24,437 bases of DNA from Elusimicrobiota bacterium (GCA_037137395.1 JBAXKK010000034.1:1-24437), one strand, 5' to 3'; positions 3,987-18,142 are shown, counted from the stretch's first letter. Notes: generated by a model from the sequence alone, not told the origin. Numbers and translations are program-made.

Positions 3987-6575
3987 CTACCCCCCGTGCT
4001 TTTTGGAAAATATATTCTTCAGCCGCATTATCAATATTTCTTTCTTAACCGGCTTGCGTATATAATCAAGGGCGCCAAGCGCGAGGCCGCGCTCTTCTGA
4101 TTCGGCGGCCTCGTGGGAGGTGAAGAACACCACGTCCACTTTTATGTTTTTCTGATTAAGCATCTCAAGAAGGCGCAGCCCGTCCAGGTTTGGCATGTCT
4201 ATATCGGAAAGCACAAGGTCAAACTTTTCGCTCCCAAGGCGAATAATGGCCTCTATTCCGTCTTTCACCGTTGTTACACTGTAGCCCGCTTCCGCTATTG
4301 CCTTTTCAGCGAAGACAAGCAGATCGGGGTCGTCATCCACGACAAGTATTTTTTTCGGCTTCGCAGCCTGAAGCGGTTCTTGGGCCGGGTTATGTTCCGC
4401 GCTGGTCTCCGTTTCCTGGGCGGGGGCTGCCGCGGGCCCGGTCTCAGCAGGCACGAGCAGATTTTCGTCCTCAGGGACAGCCACCGGAGCCGCTCCGAGG
4501 TCCTCGGCTAGGACTTTTTCGTAGGCGTCGCGGAACGAGATATAGCCATCGGCCACCTTAGCCAGGGCGGCGTCGGTGATAAGGGTCACATTGCCGCGCC
4601 GCAGGGATTCCCGTATAGCGGAAACGGAAGTGCCTGAACGTATCATCTCGGCTACTTCCGTGGTTATGGATATTATCTCATAAACGGCTTCCCGGCCATT
4701 ATATCCGGTATTCTTGCAGGCGGGGCAGCCAACCGGATGTCCCGTCTGGCGCGGAGCGGGGCGGCTGAATCTGTCAAAAACATGCCGGATTTCTTCATCC
4801 GCGGGCTTCATCGCCCTGCATTTAGGGCAAAGGCGCTTGATGAGGCGCTGGGAAACGATTGCCAGCATTGTGTCGGCGATCTGCGACCGCGTCACACCCA
4901 GGCGCTCCAGGCGGAAAACCGCCGTGGTGGCGTTGGAGGTGTGCATGGTGCTTACGGTAAGGTGGCCCGTGCTTGAAAAATCCAGCGCTATCTGGGCCGA
5001 AACTTTGTCGCGGACCTCGCCCAAAAAAAGTATATCGGGGTCCTGGCGCACGGAGGATTTAAGCAGCGCGTCAAATGTGACGCCTGATTTATCGTTTACC
5101 TGCTGCTGGTTGGCGTGGGGGATGCGGAATTCTATGGGATCCTCTACGGATATAAGGCTGCGCCGCTGGCAGTCCATGTTTGAAAGGAAGCTGTAAATGG
5201 TCGTGGTTTTACCGGAGCCGCTGGGACCGGCTAAAATCAGCATGCCCTGGGTCTTGGACGAAAGGAGCAGCATAGTTTCCGACTGGGCCTTGTCCATTCC
5301 CAGCTCACGCAGGGTCTTTGGTTTGGCCTGGGGTTCAATCAGGCGTAGGACCATGCTCTCCCCGTAGTTCGTGGAGGTTGTGGCCAGGCGCAGGGTGAAC
5401 CTCCTTTCGCCCAGCGCGGCGACAAAAGCTCCGTCCTGCGGGCGCCGCCTTTCCGTTATATCCATGCCGGCCAGAACTTTAAGGCGCGTGACCGCCATAA
5501 CCGCGGTGGTTGTTTTGAGCCTGGTGAATTCCTTAAGGTCGCCGTCTATTCTGAAGCGTATCGAGGTGAAAAGTTCCTTGGGCTCCATATGTATGTCGCT
5601 GGCCCGCTCCTGTATGGCCGCCTCTATCAATTTGGAAGTTATATATTTGACAGGGCTTTCTTCAACCTGCTCGCCCAGGGTCTTTTTTTCGGTTAAAGTG
5701 GAGACCTCTTCAGTTTCCACGGAGAGGCCTTGCTCATCTTCATCTCCCCCCCCCGGATCCTGCGTGAGATGGTAAAGGTTGGATATGGAATCCGGATCCG
5801 CGACGGCGAGCGAATATGGCTCCTGTATCATGCGCCCGAGCAAGTCCACAAGCTCAAAGTCAAAGGGGTTAGAAAGCACCACAAGCAAGCCTTTCTCATC
5901 CTCAGCCAGAGCTACGATATTCCTGCCCCTCATGAACTTTGCGGGAAGCACGCCCAGCTTAATATTGTCGGGATTGATTATAGGTATGAACGGCAGGTTT
6001 AAGAACCCGGCTATGGTTTTAGCGGCCTCGGATCTGGAAAATTTAAGCTGCCCCAGCACGGCGTAGACGTCGGCATGGGACATTCTTTTTACCGCCTCAG
6101 GATTTATCTCGCCCGGCCCTCCCGGAGCAAGCAGCGACTGCCTGAAAGTAGTTATGGATCCGGTATTTACGGCGCGCGGTTGAGGCGCGGGGGGCGTTGC
6201 CCAATGGAGGCTCTTTGCAATGTGGCCGCTGATTAGAGGGATAAGCTGCGCTCCCTTGAAAGGTTTGGAGACAAAATCCACGGCGCCGAGCGACAGCGCT
6301 TTCATCTTATCGGAGTATTGATTTAAAGCGGTAAGAAAAATAATCGGCAGCTCTGAAGTCTCGGGCTGCCTTCGCAGCGCGGCGCAGACGTCGTAACCGC
6401 TCAGTGCCGGCATCATTATATCCAGCAGTATCAGGTCCGGCTTCACCCTGACGGCGCAGGCGACGGCGTCCTTCGGATCGGAGAGCGTAGTCACCTGGAA
6501 CCCGGCGTTGGAAAGAGTGACGCTCAGCAGCTCCAGTATATCCCGATCGTCGTCTATGCAGAGCACTTTATTCAT
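3987..6575 (-). CDS. PilB/GspE-family secretion/pilus assembly ATPase with N- and C-terminal response-regulator receiver domains
   Basis: REC1 (CIDDD...LLDIMMP...FLTA...SKPF). T2SSE N-domain-like segment. ASDIHMEP...RFRIDG...PQDG. Walker A GPSGSGKTT, Asp box SVEDPIE, Walker B ILFLGEVRD, His box TGHLTVSTMHT, Zn motif CPKC...CPAC..TGYNGR. REC2 (VVDDD...LSDIDMP...FFTS...RKPV). Confidence 0.93.
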   Translation of the reverse strand: MNKVLCIDDDRDILELLSVTLSNAGFQVTTLSDPKDAVACAVRVKPDLILLDIMMPALSGYDVCAALRRQPETSELPIIFLTALNQYSDKMKALSLGAVDFVSKPFKGAQLIPLISGHIAKSLHWATPPAPQPRAVNTGSITTFRQSLLAPGGPGEINPEAVKRMSHADVYAVLGQLKFSRSEAAKTIAGFLNLPFIPIINPDNIKLGVLPAKFMRGRNIVALAEDEKGLLVVLSNPFDFELVDLLGRMIQEPYSLAVADPDSISNLYHLTQDPGGGDEDEQGLSVETEEVSTLTEKKTLGEQVEESPVKYITSKLIEAAIQERASDIHMEPKELFTSIRFRIDGDLKEFTRLKTTTAVMAVTRLKVLAGMDITERRRPQDGAFVAALGERRFTLRLATTSTNYGESMVLRLIEPQAKPKTLRELGMDKAQSETMLLLSSKTQGMLILAGPSGSGKTTTIYSFLSNMDCQRRSLISVEDPIEFRIPHANQQQVNDKSGVTFDALLKSSVRQDPDILFLGEVRDKVSAQIALDFSSTGHLTVSTMHTSNATTAVFRLERLGVTRSQIADTMLAIVSQRLIKRLCPKCRAMKPADEEIRHVFDRFSRPAPRQTGHPVGCPACKNTGYNGREAVYEIISITTEVAEMIRSGTSVSAIRESLRRGNVTLITDAALAKVADGYISFRDAYEKVLAEDLGAAPVAVPEDENLLVPAETGPAAAPAQETETSAEHNPAQEPLQAAKPKKILVVDDDPDLLVFAEKAIAEAGYSVTTVKDGIEAIIRLGSEKFDLVLSDIDMPNLDGLRLLEMLNQKNIKVDVVFFTSHEAAESEERGLALGALDYIRKPVKKEILIMRLKNIFSKKHGG

Positions 6576-15800: not shown

Positions 15801-18142
15801 GAATATCGGTCCAGAATCATACCGTTCTTAAACTCAACATCATCACGGCTGATTTCGCCGGGGTGGCTATAGAGGTACATGACTTTTTCAAGAAACTTAT
15901 CCGGATATCTGGTCAAACTTACGACATGCTTGAGCAAAACCGTGTCATCATCGTCGCCCATAATGTGTTCTGGCACATTAAACAACTCAACTATTCTATG
16001 GTTAACCAGCAACCGCTTCTGATTGTCATCGATCACTAAAATTCCGTCTATAGTCGCGTTAGTCTGCGCCTCAAGTAAAGCTGTCTTTGATGCCAGCACC
16101 GCCTCAGCCCGTTTACGCGCCGTTATGTCCTGGATAATTGAATGCAAAACCGAGCGCCCGCCGAATTGAATATTGCTTGACGATACTTCCACATCCCGCA
16201 CCGAACCATCAGCCAGGCGGTGCCGGAAATTGAACCGCTTACCTTGTGACCGGGGGACTGAGGCCATGGCCTGATAAACTTCGCTGGCCGGCAGGGTGTT
16301 GATTTCAGTGATGTTCATGCTTAGCAGTTGCTTCAGGGGATAGCCGTAAAAATTCAGCGCGGTGTCATTGGCGTCAATGATCTCGCCGGTTTCAGGGTTA
16401 ACCAGCAGCATCACCGCGGAATTGTTGGCGAATTGATTGCGATATGACTGCTCGCTCTCTCGCAATTTAGCTTGCTGGGCGCTAATACCGGCGTCGGTGC
16501 GGCGGAGCAGGACATATATAACGCCAAGAAAAAGGGCCAATAGCGTCGCGCTGATCACTACTCCTAAAGCGATCAGGCGCGCGGAGACGGCCTTATCGGT
16601 TGTGATATCACGCATGACCAATAACTCTGCAACTTCCTTGCCGGAAACATCCGGCAGCGGCATCGCAGATACTTGCCAGATTTTTCCGCTAAGTGATACC
16701 GTGCTGCCTGTTTCTCGGGCTTTAGTACCAGAGAAGTTGTCAGTCCAGTGCGCGAAAACATCGGGCAGGCGTCCCTGAGTGGCGTAGGTTATAACACCTC
16801 GGGGTAACCGGTCCCACTCGGCTTTCCGTCCAAGCATACGCATGCCATCTTCCCAGGCCTTACGGTTCAAATTCTCCTTGTGGATGACCACGGCCAATTG
16901 GACGTCGGACCGGATGTGCAGCGTTTGCAGCGCGTCCTCTATCTCTTTGCCCAGTTCCAGATAGCCTGCAAGCTTACCACTCTCCAAAACCGGCTGAACC
17001 ACACGCAGGGTGAATGTTCCCAGCGGCCCAAGTTCAATACCGGAGGCAGTTTTCCCGGTACCCGCCGCCTTAAGCGCGGTGAAGCGATTTATAATGTCTC
17101 CGTGGTTCTCCGGCTTGTGGACACGCAGAAGGCAGACGCGGTTCTTGTCATAAAAATAAAAATGTGTGAGATTGTTTTCCTGGTGGAGTGTCTTAAAGAC
17201 CGGCCGCCAGGCGGACAGGAGGCTGGCAGAATCGCCTTTACGCAGCGCTGTTTGCATGCCCGGATTGGCGGCTATTGATTGCGCGGTTGCGGCCAGGCCG
17301 GAAGCCTGCTGATTCAGGGCCGCGCGCAAATCTCCGGAAACATCGGAAATGTCAGCCGCAATATCCTTGGCCAGATGCCGCCTATTCTGCTGATAGAGAA
17401 GCGTTCCCATGCCGACAATTAATAGGGTCACTATAATTGCCAAATAGGGCAACAAGCCACGTAGCATCGGTTTTGATACGGCATTAACCCGGCGGACCGC
17501 GGCAACTACGGAAATAGCGCCGATGAGCAGCACGAGGAGCAGCCCCACGGGCATGGCCGCGCTGGCGGCTATCTCCTGTCTCCATGTGTTGGCGTCAACA
17601 TCCATGCCAAGTATGGCGATTATGGCGTCGGTTTGCGGCTCATAAATCGGGATTAGCGCCGAAATCCACATACCCCAGCGATCTGTGACGGGGCCCGCGA
17701 CGGTTTCAGTCTTAGTGTCAAAAGCCCCGCGGTATTCTGCCGGTACTTCTTCATATACCTGCCCCGGCGGAGAATAATCTTTTGAGTCGGCTTGTTCGCT
17801 GTCAACGAAAATGAAAACTGTTCCATTCGCCCTGCGGCCCATGAGATAAACAAACCGGCATCGCGGGCTGGCCATGCGGATAGCCGTGAGCTGTGCCTTT
17901 AGTCGTTTATAATTGGCGCTATTTAGATCCGCTTGCGTGCCGGTGAGTTTCTGTATGTGCTCAATGTCAACTGCCCGTGCCACGGTCCGTGTCTGTGTCA
18001 GCAGATTGTCGCGCATGCCGCGGTCTATCCGCGCGGCCGTCCACCAGGCAAACAGCGTTCCTGCAAGCAGCGCCGCCGCGATCGCGCCGGCCATCCACAA
18101 GTTTCGCCCTTCGTTTAATCCCACCGAGTGTTTTATATTCAT
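12797..18142 (-). CDS. Membrane hybrid histidine kinase: two extracytoplasmic sensor domains, 3 PAS, GAF, HisKA, HATPase, three receivers
   Basis: Four hydrophobic segments bracket two Cache-like regions. H-box [39 protein letters not shown]. Receivers IVDHQMP, FMDIQMP and LMDIEMP, each with acidic pair and KP. No Hpt domain. Confidence 0.95.

Follow-up and report, generated by a model that had tools for sequence, protein, structure and literature searches.

A PilB/GspE-family ATPase with two receivers and a linked Hpt gene: a candidate phosphorelay-controlled accessory pilus motor in Elusimicrobiota

Introduction

Known control of pilus extension motors is exerted either by cyclic di-GMP (c-di-GMP) or by partner proteins distinct from the motor. 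How PilB is controlled was reviewed in 2024 in a text that treats c-di-GMP, PilZ/FimX, Pil-Chp, TfpB and exopolysaccharide (EPS) signaling, and in which, as far as it was available to us, the word "receiver" does not occur (PMC11656802). One receiver (REC)-bearing architecture, REC-MshEN-T2SSE, is entered for Geobacter metallireducens Gmet_3473 in Supplementary Table 4 of Wang et al. (2016), where, in the available part of the paper, it stands without a function (PMC5013675). This locus tag appeared in no paper found by our literature search. Here we analyze a 14-kb block of eight genes, at positions 3987 to 18142 of a 24,437-nucleotide stretch of DNA from an Elusimicrobiota bacterium (GCA_037137395.1, JBAXKK010000034.1:1-24437; the whole stretch is called the window below), which contains a PilB/GspE-family ATPase with two receivers and, overlapping it, a gene for a stand-alone histidine phosphotransfer (Hpt) protein.

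Because the predicted motor carries two receivers and an Hpt gene is nearly always adjacent to it, direct switching of the motor by a sensor kinase, through phosphorylation, is likely. Judged by sequence comparison, the clade to which the ATPase belongs is a real, conserved and uncharacterized variant of the PilB/GspE motor, and the genomic evidence is strong for phosphorelay control of this motor and moderate for a pilin output. With its triplicated modular pilin, the window shows the module in unusually complete form.

Results

The ATPase combines two intact receivers with a complete set of motor motifs

The two central genes are the following.

3987-6575, minus strand: REC-N1-ATPase-REC protein of the PilB/GspE family by Pfam, 862 amino acids
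6568-6867, minus strand: stand-alone Hpt, 99 amino acids, phospho-acceptor H47, PF01627 above cut-off, overlapping the ATPase start by 8 bp

Besides two Response_reg stretches, the ATPase contains the C-terminal part of MshEN (PF05157, residues 200-273) and a T2SSE domain (PF00437, residues 303-684, E 5e-105). An initial annotation, made from the window alone, had named H47 of the Hpt and D52 and D791 of the ATPase receivers as phospho-residues, and a residue check showed all three to be correct. The motor domain has a Walker A box (450-457), an Asp box (478-482), the Walker B residue E520, a His box (H538/H545) and a tetracysteine site (583/586/617/620).

A protein search yielded 1740 matches among 8000 scored candidates, and the best 120 were analyzed; since these were chosen for full-length likeness, which favors the presence of receivers, the following counts apply to that selection. 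Counting only rows that have a residue at the position, the acceptor aspartates were conserved in 117/117 at D52 and in 117/118 at D791, and the receiver lysines K104 and K841 in 117/117 each. The Walker A lysine, the Walker B glutamate, both histidines and all four cysteines were present in 120/120, and the catalytic motifs overall in 118 to 120 of 120. At the level of loci, complete receivers (acidic pair, Asp, Thr/Ser and Lys) were found in 41/46 cases for the N-terminal and 60/65 for the C-terminal domain, the misses being mostly cut-off or divergent copies. The C-terminal receiver is the more constant of the two; some lineages that have retained the Hpt show a decayed N-terminal receiver or none at all. 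MshEN's motif for the binding of c-di-GMP, sought as the RLGxxLxxxG type taken from the available part of the literature (also PMC10333796 and PMC4471445), was found in the first 330 residues of none of the 120 homologues, and control by c-di-GMP through MshEN was therefore rejected.

The AlphaFold model of the ATPase (mean pLDDT 82, pTM 0.66) matched GspE, PilF and PilB best in Foldseek (4PHT, 5OIU and 5TSH), above PilT, and the protein has the N1 domain and tetracysteine site that retraction ATPases lack. It scored below the NCBIfam cut-offs for PilB (363 versus 675.65), GspE (376 versus 630.25) and TfpB (347.5 versus 850), a weak test for this lineage because the pilin-linked ATPase on contig C62 of the same genome also falls short (538.7). 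As a predicted motor, the protein would hydrolyze ATP as a hexamer and power the assembly of filaments.

In a tree of 160 rows built from the ATPase domain only, these proteins stood apart as a clade with 66 members (support 0.93) and a core of 63 (support 0.74), and all members of the 66 have a C-terminal receiver save two that are cut by contig ends. Receiver-fused ATPases also sit in other branches (two paralogues from the source genome and one Acidobacteria group), so the fusion of receiver and ATPase probably arose more than once.

Several variants of these architectures were seen. ATPases of another branch, with a C-terminal receiver, no Hpt and a kinase near each, lie at G000:C19:22969-25221 and C88:445-2643 (L183, L184). 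In the Acidobacteria ATPase branch with a C-terminal receiver (L023-L036 and similar), the gene that comes next often encodes a single-domain receiver. Actinobacteria loci have a second, divergent REC-ATPase-REC protein (L009:138-2681, L011:71-2596 and L012:139-2682), in which the Asp and His boxes are altered and the C-terminal receiver is devoid of its lysine. Downstream of a clade ATPase, L006:14363-16150 and L008:2445-3734 encode REC-N1-REC proteins without an ATPase domain, possibly regulators or decoys. Two GspE-type ATPases of about 1510 amino acids (P0124 and P0125) are fused to PAS, GGDEF and EAL domains.

An Hpt gene is inherited together with the ATPase across phyla

The Hpt of the window is the sole PF01627 match in its genome. 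After removal of three divergent ATPase paralogues and of loci with less than 700 bp upstream (14/63 core and 8/87 others), 43 of 49 core clade loci had an Hpt gene upstream and on the strand of the ATPase, versus 0 of 79 other PilB/GspE loci. These counts overstate independence, since the loci are related to one another, the window protein served to find them and the Hpt profile was derived from them. The phospho-accepting histidine was kept in 45/45 paired Hpts, and Pfam confirmed 8/8 of the upstream Hpts submitted. Pairing was seen in records of Elusimicrobia, Deltaproteobacteria/Thermodesulfobacteriota, Actinobacteria/Coriobacteriia, Chloroflexi and Omnitrophus. Eleven further Elusimicrobiota loci had the Hpt upstream (six), divergent (one) or fused (one), with none detected in three. 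The fusion, in G400 (L195:1111-4347, minus strand, contig C55), is a single 1078-amino-acid frame reading REC-Hpt-REC-N1-ATPase-REC. A search for longer fusions was weakly informative either way: proteins above 1510 amino acids gave nine matches, none with an Hpt. Pairwise distances of Hpt and ATPase correlated (r 0.69, shuffled maximum 0.27), which reflects shared inheritance and is no proof of binding, because kin share both genes.

These results support the proposal of the initial annotation that the relay ends on the ATPase receivers, and show that the linkage is conserved in other genomes. The accompanying argument, that other outputs are absent, holds for the block, none of whose eight proteins has a Pfam match to a DNA-binding, CheA/MCP, GGDEF or EAL domain, but not beyond it. 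A GGDEF gene lies near 9/63 clade loci, in some between Hpt and ATPase (REC-GGDEF by Pfam in six, a GGDEF fragment in two), and the source genome has four GGDEF matches elsewhere, with receiver proteins overlapping GGDEF matches on contigs C24 and C83. The ATPase receivers are therefore not the only possible end point.

A hybrid kinase, unlike the classic kinase, is often found near the pair

Two histidine kinases follow in the block.

9998-12802, plus strand: classic cytoplasmic kinase with PAS, GAF, HisKA (H717) and HATPase domains and no receiver, of doubtful membership
12797-18142, minus strand: hybrid membrane kinase with dCache, PAS, GAF, HisKA (H1170) and HATPase domains, three receivers and no Hpt

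The H-boxes of both kinases and all three receivers of the hybrid kinase are intact; as the initial annotation had held, the latter lacks an Hpt of its own. A hybrid kinase lies within 3 kb of the ATPase in 20/29 clade loci versus 2/58 others, and an orthologue 70% identical to that of the window directly follows Hpt-ATPase in G016. By contrast, the inclusion of both kinases in the system did not survive comparison: a receiver-less kinase was near just 2/63 clade loci, and the classic kinase was rejected as a core part. Its closest match in the analyzed data, at 66% over the kinase core, is the kinase beside the ATPase-REC paralogue on contig C19.

A pilin-like gene and modular pilins occur with the ATPase in part of the clade

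Between the Hpt and the kinases lie four pilin or pilin-like genes.

6970-7437, plus strand: p0, an uncleaved pilin-like membrane protein of 155 amino acids with no Pfam or NCBIfam family
7400-8143, plus strand: modular pilin 1, with class III signal, Cys3His head and its own C-terminal domain
8199-9077, plus strand: modular pilin 2, with the same N-terminal module and a lectin-like beta domain (PF06439 weak, under cut-off)
9074-9964, plus strand: modular pilin 3, with an N-terminal module 92% identical in DNA and a lectin-like beta domain

The three pilins have the class III signal G/A-F-x-x-x-E5 followed by a hydrophobic helix, and PF07963 and TIGR02532 match above cut-off. The listed reading frame of pilin 1 begins at 7223; the ATG at 7400 or 7415 is the likely start. 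In p0 we found no match to N_methyl, the class III cleavage/methylation motif; it consists of a long N-terminal tail, one hydrophobic helix, and a head that shares three cysteines and one histidine with the pilins. Zinc binding by a Cys3His set is known from Clostridioides difficile PilJ and may hold for these heads as well. The top five structural matches of the p0 head were pilins (Z 5.2-4.5, rmsd 3.1-3.7, 70-76 residues aligned), a middling result with which unrelated folds tied, and Foldseek returned no match to the p0 model at E ≤ 0.001. The p0 proteins form an unnamed family of 97 matches, and the cultured Desulfosudis oleivorans has a homologue (ABW66896.1); most relatives have a CxxC..CxxC motif in the tail, which the window copy has lost.

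The N-terminal pilin module is combined with varied C-terminal domains: lectin-like in pilins 2 and 3 of the window, another domain in pilin 1, and leucine-rich repeats (LRR) in a paralogue on contig C81. The latter is a lone Cys3His pilin-module gene with a BspA-type LRR domain (L182:1487-2497, minus strand). L079 has a similar three-pilin array. After the ATPase of a Chloroflexi locus, L013:5545-6375 encodes a chimera of a p0-like Cys tail, a membrane helix and the lectin-like domain of the pilins. On contig C62 of G000, tandem 155-amino-acid pilin genes with the same N-terminal sequence (L185:9304-9771 and 10053-10520) lie near an ATPase and a gene that we take to be a prepilin peptidase.

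Within the clade, p0 was near only 15/51 loci and a Cys3His pilin near only 13/51, versus 0/72 and none, respectively, of the others. Strong p0 matches were found in 5/301 Elusimicrobiota genomes and 10/201 genomes of the class of G042, and all 15 of these (502 genomes searched) were among the 13 + 17 that have the ATPase, with the proviso that the p0 profile was built from ATPase neighbors and that kin are not independent. Weak matches in G198, G277 and G339, the last adjoining a partial ATPase-REC, were dropped. In four genomes (G018, G464, G474 and G078), p0 and the ATPase lie on separate contigs; G018 has kinase-p0-pilin on one and Hpt-ATPase on another. In G433, ATPase-p0-pilin is present, but the N-terminal receiver has decayed and both the C-terminal receiver and the Hpt are missing. 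From the arrangements in G018 and G433, the ATPase appears to link the relay half and the pilin half, and since strong p0 matches were confined to genomes that have the ATPase, the pilin half seems to depend on it.

A complex predicted for the L003 pair of p0 tail and ATPase lent weak support to a contact (score 0.45; best of three controls 0.00), the runs agreeing on at least 63% of contacts with a partner pLDDT of at least 55. In the calibration, 18 of the 157 solved complexes passed with a score of 0.60 or less; of 215 mismatches 2 passed, both of them in that score range.

Pilus machinery, if used, would come from outside the locus

The block lacks genes for a platform (PilC), PilM, a secretin and a peptidase. 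Among loci flanked by 6 kb or more, PilC was near 0/23 of the clade versus 25/50 others, and a self-contained pilus operon was rejected on this ground. The source genome has PilC (contigs C48 and C16), PilM and secretins elsewhere, and five distant genomes each have PilC and separate, higher-scoring canonical PilB/GspE ATPases on other stretches. Since PilC is missing near the clade loci and the platform and canonical ATPases are found elsewhere in the genomes, the REC-N1-ATPase-REC protein is, on these gene contents, an accessory ATPase.

The gene layout is probably sound

All eight genes announced by the initial annotation, two kinases, a stand-alone Hpt, the two-receiver ATPase and four pilin or pilin-like genes in about 14 kb, were placed by the open reading frame listing and Pfam. 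By strand, they form three transcription units rather than one operon: Hpt-ATPase (minus), the pilin-like gene to the classic kinase (plus), and the hybrid kinase (minus). One further feature was recorded.

6951-6924, minus strand: promoter-like site, TTGAGT-16-TATAAT, 10/12 by consensus match alone, pointing into Hpt-ATPase

An SPFH gene flanks the block on one side and presumably rpsO-pnp-like genes on the other. The nearest relatives are Elusimicrobia (72%). The clade is patchy, being present in 3/40 relatives and 13/301 genomes of the phylum; despite this, composition gave no signal of a foreign origin (GC 0.529 in the block versus 0.524 in the genome).

Pilin genes 1 and 2 share a 300-nucleotide 5' block with one mismatch, of which gene 3 has a 92% identical copy. 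Four sequencing runs were searched, among them X1, possibly from the source sample, and X3, from another study. Contigs of X1 were unbroken across 3804-7480, 7723-8264, 8510-9142, 9379-11925 and 12066-14648, with no single piece covering the block; depth was about 20 in two bins over the pilin repeat versus about 11 elsewhere; and X3 bridged 6586-7194 and 8107-8530. A mis-join is therefore unlikely, and none of the four runs supported an assembly artefact through the repeat. In another Elusimicrobia genome, the ATPase (A2285_06615) and p0 (A2285_06625) are two locus tags apart. At window positions 7526, 8313 and 13282, contigs from public runs have G where the window has T, a strain difference or consensus error.

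Outside the block, 21071-24397 on the minus strand encodes a 1108-amino-acid protein that begins like a signal peptide and that neither Pfam nor NCBIfam matched.

Discussion

A relay ending on an accessory motor

In the reading that we favor, and to which we give an even chance, a hybrid kinase signals through the Hpt to the ATPase receivers and thereby switches an accessory motor that builds modular pilins on a housekeeping platform. Phosphate would pass from H1170 of the kinase to an aspartate of a kinase receiver, on to H47 of the Hpt, and then to D791 and/or D52 of the ATPase. Receiver phosphorylation, in place of c-di-GMP binding, could act as the allosteric switch through ring assembly or membrane docking. 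The p0 protein may dock the ATPase at the membrane beside its pilins, as the complex weakly predicts, while PilC, PilM, a secretin and a peptidase would be supplied from elsewhere in the genome. The residues, the linkage and the fusion are observed; the flow of phosphate and its direction, the gating of the motor and the use of the platform are what we infer. Taken separately, phosphorylation of the ATPase by the Hpt is quite likely, and, granted this step, a pilin output is probable. We are more tentative about a wider proposal, which falls somewhat short of even: that this is a widespread mobile "plug-in" consisting of a relay-switched motor, a p0 anchor at the membrane, adhesive tips swapped through recombination or duplication of the constant Cys3His module, joined to varying C-terminal domains, and a borrowed housekeeping machine.

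Several observations weigh against the favored reading. Apart from the missing PilC genes, the borrowing of a platform is not a given, because, according to the review, an extension ATPase is as a rule not compatible with another machinery (PMC11656802). Of the 30 genomes with the ATPase, 15 had no strong p0 match, and the closest Elusimicrobia relatives among the loci compared (L001, L007, G016 and G006) have neither p0 nor a pilin beside the ATPase; pilins are thus optional, and the description of the block as a whole pilus system had to be abandoned. On the relay side, six of the 49 core loci have no upstream Hpt, the Hpt-ATPase fusion occurs in one genome and may be an assembly frameshift, and the source genome encodes five other PilB/GspE-type ATPases and dozens of other receiver proteins. 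The GGDEF genes near the loci are alternative Hpt targets.

The absence of p0 from half of the ATPase genomes and of a nearby PilC would also be expected if the relay ended on the ATPase and its output were not these pilins, the ATPase either tuning a housekeeping pilus or secretion machine or serving as a filament-less, nucleotide-dependent signaling switch. There are precedents in TfpB, a second motor, and in Myxococcus PilB, which regulates exopolysaccharide, as far as the consulted part of the review goes (PMC11656802). REC-N1-REC proteins without an ATPase domain and paralogues with decayed catalytic boxes point in the same direction. However, p0 was never found without the ATPase (15/15 strong matches), even where the two are unlinked, G433 retains ATPase-p0-pilin after loss of the relay, and the full motor motifs are invariant. 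We regard another output as unlikely, but as a serious contender.

We consider it rather improbable that phosphate merely passes through the ATPase receivers or is drained by them, moving onward by way of the Hpt to some regulator, such as a REC-GGDEF protein, or backwards to report the state of the motor. REC-GGDEF genes do lie in the same gene run in several relatives, receivers and GGDEF matches overlap on C24 and C83, L098 and L100 have Hpt-REC-REC genes after the ATPase, and the five intact receivers around the one Hpt of the window allow many routes. Yet no GGDEF gene was near 54/63 loci, many of them short, and a sink would need no invariant ATPase motifs.

Still less probable, and in our view very unlikely, is a two-step input in which a classic kinase feeds the receivers directly, one kinase per receiver, leaving the Hpt to part of the input or to other targets. 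The closest match of the window's classic kinase adjoins the C19 receiver-ATPase, which has no Hpt, and other receiver-fused ATPase clades likewise lack Hpt neighbors; against this stand the rarity of receiver-less kinases near clade loci and the presence of the Hpt upstream in most of them and fused in one. Chance clustering of signaling and pilin genes, or an artefact of assembly through the pilin repeats, might be suspected from the three transcription directions, the near-identical 300-nucleotide repeat and an estimated genome contamination of 7.7%, but is scarcely credible and largely refuted by the bridging reads and the Hpt linkage counts, which extend across phyla; the neighboring A2285 genes also speak against it.

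If the favored reading is true, a motor with its own phospho-switch would provide a direct handle for turning a hexameric assembly ATPase on and off with three soluble, purified proteins, and would show one cell running several motors on one platform and choosing the pilin that it displays. The module recurs in uncultured, anaerobe-rich lineages.

Comparison with known systems

The literature searched, which lay outside subscription papers, contained no description of the two-receiver, Hpt-linked clade, though Galperin's surveys of output domains may list the architecture, and no test of a direct phosphorylation switch on any pilus motor. To this extent the layout is uncharacterized, as the initial annotation had supposed; a single-receiver GspE/PilB architecture, however, was already tabulated, in the part of the source available (PMC5013675). 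Like the ATPase described here, Gmet_3473 is a PilB/GspE protein whose N1 and ATPase domains have a receiver fused on their N-terminal side; it differs, by listed architecture only, in that no C-terminal receiver, Hpt or pilin link is given in that part of the paper.

With PilB, PilF and GspE (4PHT, 5OIU and 5TSH), the clade ATPase shares the fold, all catalytic motifs, the Cys4 site and the N1 domain, but it has two intact receivers, scores below the pilB and gspE cut-offs, was never beside PilC in the well-flanked loci, and forms a separate clade. Like the MshE-type c-di-GMP ATPases, it has a regulatory module in cis at the N terminus of the motor, although the RLGxxL-type motif is missing in all 120 homologues and a phospho-receiver is found there instead. 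TfpB of Acinetobacter baylyi is likewise a phylogenetically distinct accessory ATPase beside a canonical machine, but no receivers or relay are described for it in the part of the review available, and the window ATPase falls far below its NCBIfam cut-off (PMC11656802). In the Pil-Chp and FimX/PilZ control of PilB, phosphorylation signals also influence pilus extension; according to the same part of that review, these systems act in trans, through separate regulators and cAMP or c-di-GMP, and the FimX receiver lacks its aspartate (PMC11656802). Here, unlike in Pil-Chp, intact receivers are on the predicted motor itself, and no CheA or MCP is found among the eight proteins of the block. The relay as a whole is most like Caulobacter ShkA-ShpA-TacA and Vibrio LuxN/Q-LuxU-LuxO, which run His-Asp-His-Asp with a stand-alone Hpt; those pathways end on transcription activators, whereas the one proposed here would end on a pilus-type motor.

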